DNA from: a virus
DNA: 64,000 nucleotides
Strand: one strand, 5' to 3'
Virus record (IMG/VR): IMGVR_UViG_3300042509_001112
Span: 33,847-97,846 of that record
Shown here: positions 207 to 33,908 of the stretch, one piece after another
Layout: each line of letters begins with the position of its first letter
How positions within the stretch are numbered: the stretch's first letter is position 1
Made by a program: the position numbers and the translations under genes
The notes under the pieces: model-generated
Told to the model about the DNA's origin: nothing
The model's database searches: none
What the model saw: only the letters and a program-made list of their open reading frames with translations

Positions 207-1064
207 TTAAAATATATATCTTATTGTGTTCCATGGTATTATTTTATTGTGTAATTCAATCCATTGATTAATAAATTCAGCTTTTAATTTATGGTTGTAT
301 CTAATATTTTCCCCACCATATTGAGATATTTTAAATTCTTGTATTTCTGGTTTCCATAATAAATGCTCACCTGATAAGTTATTATCTAAATTATAATGAT
401 GTTTACTTGCATTATGAGTAAGAAATATTACTTCACATTTAACTATATCTTTGTAATCTACATAAGTATTAACATAATCAAATAAATCTTCATAATCTTG
501 TAACCAATTATCATATACAACTACAGGACTAAAGTTAATATGTACATCATAACCTGCATCTATAAAAGCATCAATAGCTTTGATTCTATCAATTATCTTA
601 GAAGTATTAGGTTCTAACTCATTTGATATGTTTTGAGGCATTAAACTAAATCTAATACGTATTTTACCTTCAGGATTAAATTTAGTTAAATTAGGATTTA
701 CATATTTAGTAGCTAAGCTACCCATTGCTATTGGATGTTCTTTAAAGAATTGAAATATTCTTTCCCATTCATGATATTTAGCATGCAAAGCAAAATCTTC
801 ATTACAAGATAAATCATATGTTACATATTGATGGTGAGTTTGATTAGGTTTATCTACACTAGCAAACCATGCATGATTATTAATTTCTGTTAATATATCA
901 TTAGTATTTTTAGATATAGATAATCCAGTATGGTTATGTCTTTTCATATAACAGTAAGAACAATTATATAAACAGCCATAACCAAAACTCGGACTAATAA
1001 AATCAGTAGACCTACCACTAGGTCTTATTAACATAGATTTTCTATTTATCTGTTTTATTATCAT
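207..1064 (-). CDS. Spore photoproduct lyase-like radical SAM protein
   Basis: CxxxCxxC motif (GCLYNCSYCYM); DLSCNED matches the SplB EASCTSD region; RIRFSLMP and NFSPVV motifs. Confidence 0.85.
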   Translation of the reverse strand: MIIKQINRKSMLIRPSGRSTDFISPSFGYGCLYNCSYCYMKRHNHTGLSISKNTNDILTEINNHAWFASVDKPNQTHHQYVTYDLSCNEDFALHAKYHEWERIFQFFKEHPIAMGSLATKYVNPNLTKFNPEGKIRIRFSLMPQNISNELEPNTSKIIDRIKAIDAFIDAGYDVHINFSPVVVYDNWLQDYEDLFDYVNTYVDYKDIVKCEVIFLTHNASKHHYNLDNNLSGEHLLWKPEIQEFKISQYGGENIRYNHKLKAEFINQWIELHNKIIPWNTIRYIF

Positions 1065-1248
1065 TTTGTTTAATCAATGAACTTAAAAATATTTTCATTG
1101 TTCTACCACCATCTTGCATACTAATTTCTGCAATATCAAAATCACCTAACTCTTTATATAGAGTTAACATTCTACCAACAGAATAATCATTTTTAGCATG
1201 ATTAATTACTTCTATTCTTGTTATTTTACTATCATCAATTCCTTTCAT
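1042..1248 (-). CDS. Hypothetical protein
   Basis: 68-aa ORF overlapping both neighbours in the operon. Confidence 0.7.
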   Translation of the reverse strand: MKGIDDSKITRIEVINHAKNDYSVGRMLTLYKELGDFDIAEISMQDGGRTMKIFLSSLIKQNDNKTDK

Positions 1249-1772
1249 TATTTCATATTTTTAAGTTTATAAATATAACTACTATCTTCAGCATATTTAC
1301 CATCAATAGCTTTTAAATATCTATTTTGTATTTTTATATAATGTTCTAAACACTCAGTATAAGTATTATATACTCTGTATTTATTACCTTTTTTAATACC
1401 TAATAAGTTTTTATTAGTTTTAACTAATTTAGATGTATAATTACCTGATTCTAACTTAATTTGAGCTAATGCTACATTAGGTAATACACAACCTAATTCT
1501 ACTAATTTAACAGTAATAGCACTATCATTTAATTCAACATCTTGAACTTTATTAGTTTTAATAGTTTTAAATATTTTATAATCATTAGCTGAATTACAAG
1601 TAAATACTAATACAGTAATAACTGTTATTACAAGAAATAGTGTAATTGCTGTTACAACACTATCATTGTAAGTTTTACATTCATTTTTACATTTTTTACA
1701 AATGTATTTGTTGTCTACTACTTGCTTAACATTTTCATAACAACAACTTGATTTTAAGATTGGATTTTTCAT
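1248..1772 (-). CDS. Membrane-anchored glucosaminidase (GH73-like) peptidoglycan hydrolase
   Basis: ALAQIKLESG, NLLGIK and YAEDSSY motifs; one TM helix; Cys-rich N-terminus. Confidence 0.7.
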   Translation of the reverse strand: MKNPILKSSCCYENVKQVVDNKYICKKCKNECKTYNDSVVTAITLFLVITVITVLVFTCNSANDYKIFKTIKTNKVQDVELNDSAITVKLVELGCVLPNVALAQIKLESGNYTSKLVKTNKNLLGIKKGNKYRVYNTYTECLEHYIKIQNRYLKAIDGKYAEDSSYIYKLKNMK

Positions 1773-1792: not shown

Positions 1793-1883
1793 GTAGTCAG
1801 GACGAGATTTGAACTCGCATCTCCTATACTAATATAGGGCGTTACCAATTGTGGTATTTATTCCCACTTACGCCACCTGACCA
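1793..1883 (-). ncRNA. tRNA-like element, copy 1 (D-loop hairpin insert, 4-nt anticodon loop)
   Basis: Acceptor TGGTCAGG/CCTGACTA; D-stem GCGT/ACGC; stem CTATA-TTAG-TATAG; T-arm GCGAG-TTCAAAT-CTCGT. Confidence 0.75.
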
Positions 1884-1965
1884 TTTTGCCACTTATTCTC
1901 TTACCCTTTTATATCGTGACTAACCTGCTTTACTTAAACGAGTTTTTCAAGGGTACAGGTTATTT

Positions 1966-2049
1966 GTAGTCAGGACAGGATTGATAGAAGTAACTACTCA
2001 TCCTCACTTACTTTTGATTGGATAAACTACCAATTCCGCCACCTGACTA
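1966..2049 (-). ncRNA. tRNA-like element, copy 2 (same ends, interior replaced; folds as a rod)
   Basis: TAGTCAGGTGGCGGAATTGGTAG...AATCCTGTCCTGACTAC; lacks the 3' D strand and 5' T strand. Confidence 0.65.
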
Positions 2050-2055
2050 TATTAT

Positions 2056-2310
2056 TTATACATTATGTGTTAATTCATCCATTGTTGGTGTGAACCTATA
2101 CGCAGCTTCTTGAAGAATTGAAAACTGAACCATCATCATACGTTCGTAAGTCTCTCCACCTGCAATCTTTTGAACCATTTTACACTTTTCCCTTATAATA
2201 CCTTCCATACGGATAATACCTTGGGGACCATCTTCTTTCATTTCTTGAATTACCTGAGCCAATTCTTCATCGGACATTTCAGAAAATACTTTTGTTACTT
2301 CGTTTACCAT
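2056..2310 (-). CDS. Hypothetical protein between tRNA-like copies 3 and 2
   Basis: 84-aa ORF with A-rich leader AAAACAAATAAC-ATG, the same leader as ORF 4089-4280. Confidence 0.75.
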   Translation of the reverse strand: MVNEVTKVFSEMSDEELAQVIQEMKEDGPQGIIRMEGIIREKCKMVQKIAGGETYERMMMVQFSILQEAAYRFTPTMDELTHNV

Positions 2311-2330
2311 GTTATTTGTTTTTAAATTTA

Positions 2331-2492
2331 GTAGTCAGGACAGGATTCGAACCTGTATGATAGTAGGGTATGTACACTCCCCATTTGAAGAACTACCTTA
2401 AGCGTCTACCAAGTTACATTGACCTCGTAGTGGATTCTAACCACATTATTTTTACGTCTAGAACGAGGTTGTAACATTCCGCCACCTGACTA
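2331..2492 (-). ncRNA. tRNA-like element, copy 3 (63-nt D-loop insert, non-canonical anticodon domain)
   Basis: TAGTCAGG-TG-GCGGAAT[insert]TTGGTAGACGC...ACAGG-TTCGAAT-CCTGT-CCTGACTAC. Confidence 0.75.
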
Positions 2493-2496
2493 TGTT

Positions 2497-2574
2497 GAGG
2501 ATGAGAAGTCCTCTGTGTTGTAGTGGCTTTTCCATTCCCACTCTCATTCATTCCTTTCTCAAGGGAACAACACA
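2497..2574 (-). ncRNA. Structured RNA candidate with kissing loops, directly 5' of copy 3
   Basis: Stems TGTGTTG/CAACACA, TTCC/GGAA, GTGG/CCAC, GAGGA/TCCTC; loops TGAGAA and TTCTCA are complementary. Confidence 0.55.
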
Positions 2575-2581
2575 TTAATTA

Positions 2582-2607
2582 AGAGAGTAGTATTTCTACT
2601 ACTCTCT
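2582..2607 (-). terminator. Hairpin (terminator or processing site) after ORF 2617-3216
   Basis: Perfect 11-bp stem AGAGAGTAGTA-GAAA-TACTACTCTCT; weak U tract. Confidence 0.55.
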
Positions 2608-2616
2608 ATTAATTGA

Positions 2617-3216
2617 TTAAGCTAAAGACTCTAATACAGCTTTAGTACTAGCTGCTACTGTAGCAGTAGGTACAGATACTTTAGTTTCAACTCTCATATC
2701 TACATCACCAAATACATTAGCATTTGCAGATTCTTTATGATTGGTATAATCATTTACAAAGAATCCAGTAGAATACTGAATAGGTTGAACTACATTACCA
2801 GCACTGTCTTTAATTACATGCTTATCTTGCAACTGTTCTTTAGTTACAATACCAGCACTTAGAGCATACTTTTGCTCATCTGTTAATACATCAACAAGTT
2901 TATTGCTGTATTTCTTGCAGATTCTAGCTTTAGGTTTAGTAGCAAGCATTGCTTCTACTTGTTCTTTAGTTACACCATTTGGAACTAATACCCATGCCAT
3001 ACGAGTACTCTTGTACTCAGTTCCTTCGATATTAAATGCTTCAATATCAAATAAACTATCAGACATACTATTCTCTACTTTCTTACCTGGATAAGTAGAA
3101 ATAATTATTTGTCTAATTTGAGCTTGCTTAAATTCAGGCCCTTTTAATGAATCTACAATACCATCTACAGTAATTGCGTTAAATTCTTTGCTGATTCCAT
3201 TTACAGTTGTTTTCAT
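2617..3216 (-). CDS. Hypothetical protein
   Basis: 199-aa ORF with phage-typical codon usage. Confidence 0.8.
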   Translation of the reverse strand: MKTTVNGISKEFNAITVDGIVDSLKGPEFKQAQIRQIIISTYPGKKVENSMSDSLFDIEAFNIEGTEYKSTRMAWVLVPNGVTKEQVEAMLATKPKARICKKYSNKLVDVLTDEQKYALSAGIVTKEQLQDKHVIKDSAGNVVQPIQYSTGFFVNDYTNHKESANANVFGDVDMRVETKVSVPTATVAASTKAVLESLA

Positions 3217-5563: not shown

Positions 5564-5899
5564 TTAAATGTATTTCCTAGGCATAGGCATTTCACCTCCT
5601 TGACGCAAACACCAATGGTAAGAACCAGAACTACATTCAGTTCGATAACCTGTACCAAGTTTACCATCAAAGACACAATCTTTAATTTCAGGAAGATAAT
5701 TCATAGATAAAAGTTGTTTGTTTGTTACAAACATTATTTTATACCATTTATTATCTCCATTGAAATTATTATTTGTCTTAACACGCTTAGCCGATATGTC
5801 TTTAAATACATAAATAACCTTCTTATAATAATCTTTATAAGCTGGTTTATTATTGTATAAGCCATAACTGTAATTTGAGTTTGTGTTATTAATAATCAT
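5564..5899 (-). CDS. Hypothetical protein
   Basis: 111-aa ORF. Confidence 0.7.
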   Translation of the reverse strand: MIINNTNSNYSYGLYNNKPAYKDYYKKVIYVFKDISAKRVKTNNNFNGDNKWYKIMFVTNKQLLSMNYLPEIKDCVFDGKLGTGYRTECSSGSYHWCLRQGGEMPMPRKYI

Positions 5900-5932
5900 A
5901 ATTTATGGTTTAAATTGTTGAAAATAAAAAAT

Positions 5933-6253
5933 GGATGTGTTTAACCTACACATCCGTAGAACCTGCATTGTTTGGTTGATGCCAAAATACAGCTTATATA
6001 CTCTTTCTCATATCACTTTGCCAGTTTTGAAAGAATGTAAATCTCAGGCTGTTAAGAATAACAGTATTACTAATGCTCTAATTTCGTTCATTCAGCTGTT
6101 GGTTATAAATCAACAGCTCAGTCTTCTACGTTAGTTTGTTTCAACATAAAGAGTATCAATCTTTACGTTATACGCTTTTTAGCTCATAGTGGAGCCTGTT
6201 TATTTTGAAACATGGTAGGACAGAGCTCACGAAGAGATGTCCTTTAAACCATG
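5933..6253 (-). ncRNA. Cluster of adjacent stem-loops (structured intergenic RNA candidate)
   Basis: GGATGTGT/ACACATCC, CGTAGAA/TTCTACG, AGCTGTTGGTT/AATCAACAGCT, TGTTTCAA/TTGAAACA, CATGGT/ACCATG; strand inferred from the operon. Confidence 0.45.
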
Positions 6254-33197: not shown

Positions 33198-33908
33198 ATG
33201 GCTACAACAACATCTTTAGATCATATTGTATATTTAGTACTTGACCAAATTAGAGGTAGATCAGTAGTTACTGATACTATATTACCTGAGCAAGTTGAAC
33301 AAATAGTAATTAATTTAAGATCTCAACTTATTAAACAAGATTCTAATAAAGGTTATACAGCTGATCCTTACATTATTCAAGACTTAGGTTGTGTTGAAAT
33401 GGAAGTAGTAGATGCAGCTGAATCTTGTATTATTGAAGCAGGTTGTAATTTATTAAGAAGTGTTAAACCTATACCAAGCACAATAGAACTTCATCATAGT
33501 CAATTATTTACTAGAGTAGGACCTGTTAATAAGGGATTACCTGGTTATGATTATGTGCATTATGAAAGAATACCTTATGTATTAAATAACAAATATACTA
33601 AAAATAGAGTTAAGTATTATATGCAAAATACTAACGGTTATTTGTATCTTATAGTACCTAACAATATATTACAGGTATTAAAGTTTATAAATATACAAGG
33701 TGTATTTGAAGATCCAAGAGATGCTTATAACTTTGAAGATTGTGATGGAAAACCTTGCTATTCTTCAACAGATCCTTTCCCAATTAAAAACTGGATGGTT
33801 AATAGTATAGTAGATATGGCTGTTAAATTGTTCTTAGCTACACAAGCTTCAGTAGCTGAAGATACTACTAATAATAATGAAAATGATTACACAACACAAG
33901 CTAAGTAA
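33198..33908 (+). CDS. Tail ring / tubular protein
   Basis: 236 aa; IQGVFEDP and FPIKNWMV; crAss-like position. Confidence 0.6.
   Translation: MATTTSLDHIVYLVLDQIRGRSVVTDTILPEQVEQIVINLRSQLIKQDSNKGYTADPYIIQDLGCVEMEVVDAAESCIIEAGCNLLRSVKPIPSTIELHHSQLFTRVGPVNKGLPGYDYVHYERIPYVLNNKYTKNRVKYYMQNTNGYLYLIVPNNILQVLKFINIQGVFEDPRDAYNFEDCDGKPCYSSTDPFPIKNWMVNSIVDMAVKLFLATQASVAEDTTNNNENDYTTQAK

Follow-up and report, generated by a model that had tools for sequence, protein, structure and literature searches.

A family of non-decoding, tRNA-framed elements with variable middles in a lake phage and its uncultured relatives

Introduction

The 97.8-kb genome of a lake phage contains three tRNA-like elements on the minus strand that have common acceptor-stem ends and differ in their interiors. 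Are such elements tRNAs, remnants of tRNAs, stretches of DNA at which genes are exchanged, or genes for RNAs of another kind? An original prediction, made from the nucleotide sequence, held that they form an undecayed, non-decoding family of tRNA mimics with a constant frame and variable cargo, and listed processing signals, scaffolds, decoys and attC-like recombination sites as possible roles. Here we analyze the elements, their relatives in other viral contigs and the adjacent genes. Coordinates refer to the window, i.e. the whole stretch of 64,000 nucleotides that was analysed (positions 33,847 to 97,846 of IMG/VR record IMGVR_UViG_3300042509_001112).

Results

Three elements with one frame

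The 11-mer GTCAGGTGGCG, with which the frame starts, has exactly three exact matches, all on the minus strand (1871-1881, 2037-2047 and 2480-2490), and does not occur again across the 97.8-kb genome; with two mismatches allowed, 0.89 matches to this 11-mer are expected by chance per whole window. At the 3' end of every copy, the complementary acceptor strand is followed by A and C. The exact matches and the complementary 3' strands thus confirm a minus-strand triplet with common acceptor ends. The limits of the elements, all on the minus strand, are now fixed: copy 1 spans 2332-2491 (A1 at 2491, discriminator at 2332) and would specify a tRNA-Leu-framed RNA of 160 nt including the discriminator, copy 2 spans 1967-2048, and copy 3 spans 1794-1882 and would specify a tRNA-framed RNA of 89 nt (fold z = -2.9). 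The lengths given previously (162, 84 and 91 nt) were correct to within 1-4 nt.

None of the three copies encodes CCA or forms a 7-nt anticodon loop closed by a stem, as had been noticed before. Copies 1 and 3 have, with covariation, an acceptor stem, a D arm containing G18G19 and a T arm whose loop fits UUCRANY. The folds agree with the earlier description of these two copies as having intact D stems and T arms and different hairpins in the D loop (63 vs. 17 nt), and the T stems differ in a compensatory manner, again as described. The prediction missed, however, that copy 2 is not an intact scaffold: in both its sequence and its fold, only the frame ends are kept (the first 22 and the last 17 nt).

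In the 5' to 3' direction of the minus strand, copy 1 consists of the acceptor 5' strand together with the start of the D arm (2476-2491), a D-loop module (2413-2475), the remaining D arm (2402-2412), a middle module (2357-2401), the T arm (2340-2356), the acceptor 3' strand (2333-2339) and A73 (2332). The D-loop module is a 63-nt insert with three nested helices, the innermost of which is a T-arm-like hairpin, and the middle module comprises a closing helix, single-stranded CUUCAAAU and a 3-bp hairpin whose 11-nt loop contains a self-complementary 8-mer. The fold is cloverleaf-like, with the acceptor stem, D stem and T arm intact and the insert in the D loop. The sequence CUUCAAA resembles an anticodon loop, yet sits in a three-way junction and not in a closed loop. 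Against the Rfam tRNA model (RF00005), copy 1 scores 27.7 bits, under the cut-off of 29, and copies 2 and 3 are unreported; this sub-threshold tRNA match is the sole result of the Rfam search of the window.

Both modules of copy 1 recur elsewhere. At least 10 elements from other contigs carry the D-loop module in the same position of the D loop, each together with a different middle, and two helices of the module show compensatory changes across the recurrences; once, in contig L193, a D-loop module of this type is free-standing, after a tRNA. The pattern of the middle module is present in 37 viral contigs, always within tRNA-like frames, which are of at least 5 kinds. This set comprises 25 unique sequence contexts including the present window, and 14 full-frame elements were aligned. 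Among the 22 pairs of the alignment, 12 are compensatory, and 93.5% of the cells pair; in the controls, pairing was at most 46% when the partners were slid, and 0 of 500 shuffles reached the observed value. Judged from this alignment, the stems of copy 1 are under selection for structure.

Copy 3 carries a 17-nt hairpin in the D loop (1851-1867, minus strand), an 'anticodon' hairpin of 5-6 bp with a loop of 4-6 nt, a 5-nt variable region and a T stem with a sequence of its own. In the orthologues of copy 3, which come from four other contigs, the acceptor, D and T stems have changed in a compensatory manner, the loop sequence varies, and the discriminator changes from A to U within the lineage. 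Copy 2 lacks the 3' strand of the D stem and the 5' strand of the T stem and folds as a rod (z = -3.3), formed by pairing of the interior with the D-loop segment; copy 2 probably arose by recombination, as a remnant rather than a gene.

Spacers and neighbouring genes

A spacer of about 80 nt and a single ORF had been reported between the copies, and these correspond to an 82-nt spacer between copies 2 and 3 and an ORF of 84 aa between copies 1 and 2. The spacer (1884-1965, minus strand) may specify a structured RNA with a possible pseudoknot pairing (fold z = -2.5), and is kept upstream of copy 3 orthologues in L127/L135 and L133/L134. Upstream of copy 1 lies another predicted structured spacer RNA (2493-2576, minus strand) with a 7-bp closing helix and internal hairpins, then a small hairpin (z = -4.9 for the spacer and the upstream hairpin together). 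The opening motif of this spacer also occurs 3' of family elements in L099, L161 and L246. After a 199-aa gene, there is a terminator-like hairpin without a clear U tract (2577-2608, minus strand) that is conserved in L125-L127. A search of the phage genome for antisense targets of the three elements and the two spacers gave matches at chance level only.

The 84-aa ORF (2056-2310, minus strand), hereafter ORF84, starts 21 nt past copy 1, and 7 nt separate its end from copy 2. It encodes a small protein predicted to be all-helical, with a confident model (pLDDT 90.5), no Pfam or PHROG family and no match of the model to a PDB fold; its 137 homologue clusters are all 'hypothetical' or bear isolated odd source names. 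Of 7 viral loci examined that have ORF84 homologues, 5 contain family elements within 1.2 kb. A 174-aa gene with a glucosaminidase domain (1248-1772, minus strand) likewise starts 21 nt past copy 3. Across the family, an element is followed closely by an ORF in just a quarter of the cases. When the 2,139 ORFs of the family loci were clustered, no protein family occurred in more than 16 of the 120 loci, and the largest clusters were terminase, DUF932 or unknown. A CCA-adding enzyme was not found encoded in the phage genome, and a search of the genome for a T4-type RNA ligase (Rnl1), run with no positive control, gave no match.

A phage family with more than 100 middles

The 5' 16-mer of the frame matches more than 120 uncultured viral contigs, nearly all with the full Leu-type frame. 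The viral set contains 124 unique elements of 69-181 nt, apart from a few longer ones that span two elements, and the same frame encloses about 105 unrelated middles of 17-130 nt; the collections were seeded by exact motifs, and the invariance of the 5' frame is partly by construction. Several genomes have multiple copies of one frame, e.g. five in L013 and at least four in L134. In 186k bacterial species genomes, the 16-mer yields mostly chance matches in coding DNA, with true elements at about nine loci, which are mostly on short MAG contigs, two being on contigs of 59 and 215 kb; no host tRNA-Leu with this frame was found by this 16-mer search. The family is phage-specific. The MAG matches, together with leaders that lack an SD, suggest Bacteroidota as hosts. 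For cultured phages, a set of 50,697 phage records queried with copy 1 by blastn returned nothing but short T-arm or chance matches, and megablast of 6 kb gave no match.

ARAGORN, which the original prediction had proposed as a check in the expectation that no canonical tRNA would be called, found zero tRNA genes in the window and in the whole 97.8-kb genome. Of the 124 family members, 27 are called by ARAGORN, with scattered nonsense anticodons. Two ARAGORN intron models, one of which joins the 5' end of copy 2 to the 3' end of copy 3, were rejected as forced artefacts. Unlike this tRNA-less genome, 64 related loci contain 247 true tRNAs; the bona fide tRNA-Leu genes on the same contigs differ from the elements in their acceptor stems, and have long variable arms and canonical loops. 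Translation in this phage follows the standard code, with ORFs covering 91% of the genome and TGA ending 13 long ORFs; a recoding of stop codons that would need a UCA tRNA was considered and rejected, as it was not seen. Because Rfam searches of 19 related loci identified just tRNAs and one tmRNA, the middles of the elements and the spacers are uncatalogued. The size of the family, its covariation, its classes of cargo and the turnover of genes described below bear out the view of an undecayed, non-decoding family of tRNA mimics in which a constant frame holds variable cargo.

Ends of the elements

Of 153 elements, 130 (85%) have U at position -1, compared to a background of 29%, and this position pairs with position 73 in 82% of the elements. 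A(-1) accompanies U73 in 7 of 15 cases and A73 in 6 of 153. A73 is present in about 80-90% of the elements (the tail starts with A in 117 of 131, and A73 was counted in 153 of 194), and the 3' tail is ACA or ACU, never CCA. An ATG start of an ORF lies 15-25 nt downstream of 34 of the 131 elements vs. 4 in the antisense control. The bias towards U(-1), the missing CCA and the spacing to ORFs are consistent with the proposal that the elements are processing signals. Processing alone, however, leaves the diverse yet individually conserved middles unexplained, and a paired -1:73 could shift or hinder cleavage by RNase P. Contigs from lake RNA libraries, which can hold DNA, include other family members with the same ends; the contigs from four such libraries leave the elements of this phage uncovered.

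Exchange of cassettes

At this locus, four close relatives (L125-L128) have different elements and small ORFs. L127 lacks window positions 1967-2494 almost exactly, that is, copy 1, ORF84 and copy 2, so that the indel runs from the 5' end of copy 1 to the 3' end of copy 2, at a background identity of 94%. In L126, another element and ORF are found upstream, followed by 100% identity from base 1 of copy 2, and L125 and L128 contain yet other elements. In L240, 93.6% identity extends from the T arm of copy 1 through ORF84 to the first 20 nt of the next element, and the middles differ on both sides of the shared stretch. Of the independent contig groups in the wider set, about half show the break in similarity inside an element. 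Close relatives show no differences over copies 2 and 3 (100% identity). The gene turnover that had been expected at these sites is thus seen in L125-L128 and L240. Conservation of the frame, covariation, recurrence of modules and mosaic joints inside elements are all direct observations.

Integron attC sites are recombined in folded form by the tyrosine recombinase IntI. A search for Phage_integrase (tyrosine recombinase) across the complete genome gave no match, whereas its control was positive in 14 of 14 genomes, and the mosaic joints resemble crossovers in shared sequence rather than site-specific events; given these two results, the suggestion that the elements are attC-like sites does not fit. 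The near-invariant primary sequence of the frame might reflect a factor that recognizes it sequence-specifically rather than recombination.

Comparison with known systems

The stable RNAs of phages T4 and T5 have been annotated for decades, and no function has been assigned to them. T5 RNA1 and RNA2 (AY543070.1, 30501-30644 and 32959-33083, respectively), each annotated as 'tRNA-like stable RNA with unknown functions', and T4 species 1 RNA are look-alikes that the original prediction missed. RNA1 has an acceptor stem and a T arm together with a Leu-type D arm that almost matches that of the present frame; where the anticodon arm would be, it carries about 75 nt of other hairpins. RNA2 shares the ACA tail and has a T arm that is almost the same as here. 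The two RNAs are surrounded by small ORFs, further stable RNAs and a gene for an HNH endonuclease, and are encoded in the same direction as the genes around them. The acceptor-stem sequences differ, however, and the two T5 RNAs lie inside a true tRNA cluster, whereas there is no tRNA here. A D-loop module, a frame with many middles or swapping of cassettes has not been described for T5, and blastn of copy 1 against the phage records links no T5 RNA to copy 1. In T4, species 1 RNA (rnaC; NC_000866, 70908-71046) and species 2 RNA (rnaD), likewise a small stable RNA, are located at the end of the tRNA cluster. The rnaC RNA ends in a canonical T arm and an acceptor-like strand, with hairpins between, but has no tRNA-like D arm, and its acceptor pairing is partial, whereas rnaD folds without a tRNA frame; both are single-copy, and no modular family is known for either. 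When folds and sequences were compared, copies 1 and 3 combine tRNA-like arms with non-tRNA hairpins in the same way as T5 RNA1 and RNA2 and T4 rnaC, and they differ in location, the genome having no tRNA gene and hence no tRNA cluster.

In T4-type phages, PeSL cassettes are short repeats between small non-essential ORFs in hyperplastic regions, where recombination inserts, deletes and replaces ORFs (PMC2839356, PMC4122927). Here too, conserved repeats flank the places where ORFs are inserted, deleted or replaced between close relatives. Unlike the present elements, however, PeSL consist of a promoter and a terminator hairpin, and are not tRNA-shaped RNA; no sigma-70-like promoter was identified in the constant parts of the elements, and promoter-like sites are fewer than in shuffles, with the proviso that the type of promoter used by the host may differ.

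In engineered tRNA scaffolds, polycistronic tRNA-guide arrays, MALAT1-mascRNA and gammaherpesvirus tRNA-miRNA, RNase P and RNase Z are recruited by the tRNA body, and the RNA attached to it is protected or released. The engineered scaffolds likewise place cargo in the anticodon arm; these systems are synthetic or eukaryotic, whereas the present one is natural, belongs to viruses of bacteria, is multi-copy and combinatorial, and is presumably processed. Finally, tmRNA and the bacterial Y RNA YrlA are non-decoding and keep the acceptor and T-arm part of tRNA, as is the case here. However, no tmRNA was found by the ARAGORN tmRNA search or Rfam, with neither a tag-peptide frame nor a pseudoknot ring, and the ends of YrlA form a Ro-binding stem instead of an acceptor stem, with no Rfam matches here.

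Discussion

The explanation that we favour, and consider somewhat probable, is that the elements give rise to host-processed, tRNA-framed, stable RNAs that do not decode, and that their constant halves double as recombination joints. Copies 1 and 3 would be small-RNA genes built on one constant leucine-tRNA frame, and copy 2 a remnant. The frame retains what tRNA-processing enzymes read, namely a 7-bp acceptor stem extended by a U(-1):A73 pair, a D arm of the Leu type containing G18G19, and a canonical T arm, and variable folded modules are accommodated at two permissive sites, the place of the anticodon arm and the D loop. We infer that the elements are transcribed, processed and stable and that their modules are active. 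The elements would be co-transcribed with the minus-strand gene block, RNase P of the host would cut the 5' end, and RNase Z or exonucleases would trim the 3' end, after which CCA could be added. The product would be a stable tRNA-shaped RNA with the middle module as its working part, and the cutting would leave the next ORF with a short A-rich leader. The near-identical halves of the frame (about 25 nt at the 5' side and about 27 nt at the 3' side) would serve as portable homology, such that crossovers in them swap middles and small-ORF cassettes among related phages; copy 2 would be one such product.

The exchange of cassettes could conceivably be the whole of the matter, with the elements acting at the DNA level as recombination linkers or borders of mobile cassettes similar to PeSL, the tRNA shape an inherited leftover and the RNA jobless. 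Several observations agree with this, namely the mosaic joints inside elements, the L127 indel with its borders at the outer ends of copies 1 and 2, the near-invariant primary sequence of the frame in unrelated contigs and the survival of collapsed or rod forms (copy 2, L055 and the L015 group), and PeSL recombination provides a precedent (PMC2839356). DNA homology alone, however, needs neither kept stems nor orientation nor U(-1), whereas compensatory changes hold the stems paired, the bases of the tertiary core (U8, A14, G18G19 and the T loop) are kept, covarying middle classes are reused in different frames, orientation always follows the flanking genes, and U(-1) is conserved; we regard a purely DNA-level role as quite unlikely. 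A role as working mimics that bind other partners of tRNA is unlikely as well. Such mimics might be leucylated, serve as decoys or sponges for defence toxins directed at the acceptor end or the elbow of tRNAs, or donate amino acids off the ribosome. LeuRS of E. coli does not read the anticodon, and the Leu-type D arm, the presence of A73 in about 80-90% of the elements, the intact elbow and the many copies of one frame per genome in L013 and L134 are all compatible with a mimic, as is the invariance of the frame across phages with likely differing hosts, which suits a conserved partner. It fits less well that the phage has no CCA enzyme and, in the search run with no positive control, no match to a T4-type RNA ligase, that the discriminator changes from A to U in the copy 3 lineage and that members with a rod-like fold and no T arm or D arm have survived; moreover, a decoy would not need more than 100 conserved middles.

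That copies 1 and 3 are decoding tRNAs, copy 1 reading UGA with an 18-nt intron-like hairpin beside UCA and copy 3 having a 6-nt loop, is very improbable. ARAGORN, run with introns, does call copy 1 'SeC(tca)', and the copy 1 class keeps a 7-mer identical to the anticodon loop of tRNA-Sec next to a well-placed helix. The intron model, however, rests on a different, forced D arm, a hairpin lies within the would-be loop, and we know of no route in bacteria by which the intron-like hairpin could be spliced. One member of the copy 1 class has A, not U, at the wobble position, and the genome is on the standard code, with TGA at the end of 13 long ORFs. The loop of copy 3 has 4-6 nt and a sequence unlike among its orthologues, and the same frame carries about 105 unrelated middles. 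Decaying pseudogenes of tRNAs, or chance repeats, seem hardly credible: copy 2 is clearly defective as a cloverleaf and tRNA finders reject all three copies, but the members number in the hundreds, changes in the stems are compensatory, the middles are conserved and reused, and relatives are 100% identical over copies 2 and 3.

The favoured explanation, host-processed stable RNAs on a constant frame, can be taken further, tentatively and with a good deal of doubt, to a natural 'tRNA chassis', in which one frame that is read, and perhaps charged, by the host makes more than 100 RNA payloads, e.g. decoys, aptamers or dimerising modules such as the loop of copy 1, with the halves of the frame as crossovers. 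If this were true, payloads and neighbouring small genes would be exchanged between phages like integron cassettes, with no dedicated recombinase. If the frame recruits RNase P and RNase Z, the system would be a natural counterpart of engineered tRNA scaffolds and a form of tRNA punctuation of phage transcripts.

For the annotation of phage genomes, the tRNA calls that ARAGORN makes on about a fifth of the members pollute censuses of phage tRNAs. For phage biology, these observations show that stable RNAs of the T4/T5 type are not confined to two laboratory phages but belong to a modular system that is widespread among uncultured phages, in which one frame is conserved, two sites take insertions, more than 100 payloads are conserved and the traces of exchange are clear. 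Conserved classes of payload, such as the copy 1 module in 37 contigs, make the function of these long-known stable RNAs testable.

Structure and setting of the elements

The 11-mer that opens the frame, i.e. the constant leucine-tRNA-type ends (acceptor stem, D arm and T arm) enclosing a variable middle, occurs exactly three times within 620 nt, always on the minus strand, and nowhere else in the genome; each copy ends with a 7-mer complementary to the acceptor start, followed by A and C. Copies 1 (2332-2491) and 3 (1794-1882) are predicted to fold into an acceptor stem, a D stem and a T arm, with an extra D-loop hairpin of 63 nt in copy 1 and 17 nt in copy 3. Of the frame, copy 2 (1967-2048) retains no more than 22 nt at the start and 17 nt at the end; its interior pairs with the D-loop segment to give a rod fold (z = −3.3). 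The original prediction of a non-decoding array of tRNA mimics described the elements correctly overall, except that copy 2 was treated as a scaffold of equal quality. ARAGORN, proposed there as a check, called no tRNA and no tmRNA in the window or the whole genome. The sole Rfam match was a sub-threshold tRNA hit to copy 1 (27.7 bits, cut-off 29), and a custom scan for any T arm with matching acceptor strands found only these elements within the genome.

The source record (97,846 bp, G+C 28%), of which the window takes up bases 33847-97846, is rated complete by CheckV, and the DNA runs containing the virus come mostly from lake or fresh water. With the standard code, 91% of the genome is taken up by ORFs of 100 or more codons, and reassigning any of the stop codons to sense brought no real gain. 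The elements sit within a long minus-strand gene block encoding a 199-aa protein of unknown family (2617-3216, minus strand; phrog_16309, function unknown), with a terminator-like hairpin lacking a U tract after it, a glucosaminidase-domain protein, a spore-photoproduct-lyase-like radical SAM enzyme (207-1064, minus strand; Pfam SPL, E = 4e-21, here in a phage genome), an HNH endonuclease, ThyX and a PolB-like exonuclease. A NUMOD4 + HNH_3 homing-endonuclease gene (genome 32838-33428, or L124:8839-9429 under our handle for this phage) is situated shortly before the window begins, on the same strand as copy 3 and ~2.8 kb downstream of it; the tRNA or stable-RNA regions of T4 (segB) and T5 (TflI) likewise carry homing endonucleases.

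ORF84 (2056-2310, minus strand), between copies 1 and 2, encodes an all-helical protein of 84 aa with a confident structure model (pLDDT 90.5) and 137 homologue clusters (60-100% identity), often located in islands of tRNAs or tRNA-like elements; searches of Pfam, PHROG and PDB folds gave no match. The spacer upstream of copy 1 (2493-2576, minus strand) is structured, with a 7-bp closing helix, internal hairpins and then a small hairpin; because its opening motif recurs right behind family elements in contigs L099, L161 and L246, this spacer may represent another recurring RNA module in these islands. Between copies 2 and 3 lies a spacer (1884-1965, minus strand) that is kept upstream of copy 3 orthologues in L127/L135 and L133/L134. 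Its two interleaved pairs of complementary segments (5 and 7 bp) predict a pseudoknot, for which no covariation has been seen so far.

Distribution and relatives of the family

Among the matches listed, the first 16 nt of the frame were found in more than 120 viral contigs, nearly always continuing into a leucine-type D arm and ending with the same T arm and acceptor strand; element length ranges from 69 to 181 nt, and the middles of the 124 unique elements fall into ~105 unrelated classes. Several contigs carry arrays (five elements in L013, at least four in tandem in L134). By contrast, almost all matches to the 16-mer in 186k bacterial and archaeal species (one genome each) were chance occurrences in coding DNA, true elements being confined to ~9 loci, mostly on short MAG contigs. 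Judged by this distribution, abundant in viral contigs and nearly absent from cellular genomes, the family is phage-specific and its frame is not a copy of any host tRNA. No match was found in the cultured phage records searched. The few true elements in bacterial bins come from MAGs that include Chitinophagia, Sediminibacterium and Flavobacterium (contigs L313, L248, L256); this placement, together with A-rich leaders without a Shine-Dalgarno motif, hints that part of the family belongs to phages of Bacteroidota. Elsewhere, contig L055 (minus strand, offset 4098 of the reverse complement) carries an 'empty frame', its first 16 nt fused directly to the last 14, as if the stretch between the GAAU motifs of the D and T loops had been deleted, and L092, a phage contig with many tRNAs and family elements, encodes a tmRNA (5724-6218; Rfam 68.5 bits, cut-off 47).

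The nearest known likenesses come from T5 and T4. Two T5 RNAs bear the annotation 'tRNA-like stable RNA with unknown functions': RNA1, in which the leucine-type D arm is near-identical to that of the frame and ~75 nt replace the anticodon arm, and RNA2, whose T arm nearly matches that of the frame and whose tail is ACA. Small ORFs, an HNH endonuclease gene and further stable RNAs are found around both. At its end, T4 rnaC (species 1 RNA) has a canonical T arm with a partial acceptor strand. The wider family was not found described in the literature searched; a 2026 preprint on three bacterial tRNA mimics deals with other RNAs.

Conserved stems and exchangeable modules

That the elements are odd decoding tRNAs we consider very improbable. 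ARAGORN called 27 of the 124, all set on one frame; their anticodons are scattered, and many are never used in bacteria or are 2 or 4 nt long. Genuine tRNA-Leu genes that share these contigs show ordinary acceptor stems along with canonical loops and a long variable arm. Decay of tRNAs is hardly credible. The 14-member alignment of the copy 1 class has compensatory changes in 12 of 22 pairs, with 93.5% of cells pairing (32-46% with partners slid) and the observed values reached by none of 500 shuffles. In copy 3 orthologues from four other contigs, both partners of pairs have changed in the D, T and acceptor stems; of the small 'anticodon' hairpin, the stem is retained but not the sequence of the 6-nt loop, and the L127 orthologue lacks the D-loop hairpin. 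Both parts of the original claim, that the elements do not decode and are not decayed tRNAs, are thus borne out.

The middle of copy 1 (2357-2401, minus strand) consists of a closing helix, CUUCAAAY in single-stranded form and a hairpin of 3 bp, in which five versions of the third pair exist. This pattern occurs in 37 viral contigs, each time within a tRNA-like frame of one of at least five kinds, among them a Ser/Tyr-like one (L157) and rods that have no T arm (the L015 group). The loop 8-mer (2365-2372, minus strand) is self-complementary, with G-U at its ends, and, with G-U pairs allowed, all three variants seen stay so (a double central change in the L015 group, a single change giving G-U in L157); this suggests loop-loop dimerisation, and the loop resembles a retroviral dimerisation loop. 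The CUUCAAA 7-mer is identical to a tRNA-Sec anticodon loop; this assignment was rejected, as no stem closes the 7-mer, the wobble base of one member is A and the phage lacks UGA recoding. The D-loop module of copy 1 (2413-2475, minus strand), with two helices showing compensatory changes, occupies the same site in at least ten elements, each with a different middle, and occurs once free-standing. Since each module recurs with different partners, the two insertion sites, D loop and middle, assort independently; both are places where a tRNA tolerates extra RNA with its elbow undisturbed. No known RNA family for the modules was found in Rfam, no antisense target of the elements in the phage genome, and no partner protein family among the proteins of family loci.

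Cassette exchange

Four contigs encode relatives of the 199-aa protein (85-98% identity) and differ sharply downstream of its gene. L127, a 97-kb contig, lacks 1967-2494 almost exactly, i.e. copy 1, ORF84 and copy 2, and keeps both spacer RNAs and the copy 3 orthologue. L126 carries in place a different element (3' acceptor strand missing) and a different small ORF, and is 100% identical to the window from base 1 of copy 2 onward; L125 and L128 have still other elements and ORFs. In L240, the block shared with the window (327 nt, 93.6% identity) begins at the upstream element's T arm, takes in a 21-nt leader and ORF84, and reaches 20 nt into the next element, with different middles on both sides. 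When 128 family elements were compared with their 400-nt flanks and counted as independent contig groups, element and both flanks were kept in 7 groups and the break fell inside the element in 7 others, one of which retained both flanks with the interior swapped out.

By these comparisons, the locus is a cassette hot spot, with the gene turnover originally anticipated, and the pattern matches recombination in shared short sequences, as demonstrated for the PeSL motifs of T4-type phages (PMC2839356). The suggestion of attC-like sites fared differently: the joints do not match site-specific attC recombination, and the genome encodes no tyrosine recombinase.

Possible processing and overall interpretation

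Among 153 unique elements, 130 have U at −1 of the frame (29% background), and −2 is A or U in 150. Pairing between −1 and position 73 is possible in 82% of elements, a figure inflated by sequence relatedness, and A(−1) accompanies U73 (7/15, vs. 6/153 with A73), so the acceptor helix may be 8 bp long. The tail after the acceptor strand is ACA (74), ACU (30) or ACC (8), never an encoded CCA. An ATG ORF starts 15-25 nt downstream of 34 of 131 elements (4 in the antisense control), copies 1 and 3 included, behind the A-rich leaders. Bacterial RNase P prefers U(−1), and RNase Z works on tRNAs without encoded CCA; U(−1), the missing CCA and the ORF spacing fit host processing, not amounting to proof of it. 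Contigs from four lake RNA libraries (2017) carry the 199-aa gene (~99% identity) and other family members, in which the ends are the same and the middle, of 57-60 nt, differs; this phage's own elements are absent from them, and DNA can be present in libraries of this kind.

A role as tRNA mimics that are charged or act as decoys would suit the leucine-type D arm and the intact elbow; we regard it as unlikely. A purely DNA-level linker role, to which the breaks inside elements would point and beside which stand the compensatory changes in the stems, seems to us rather improbable. The reading that we favour, with some reserve, is that the elements are host-processed, tRNA-framed stable RNAs, in which the variable modules would be the working parts and the constant halves would double as recombination joints, copy 2 being a recombinant remnant.
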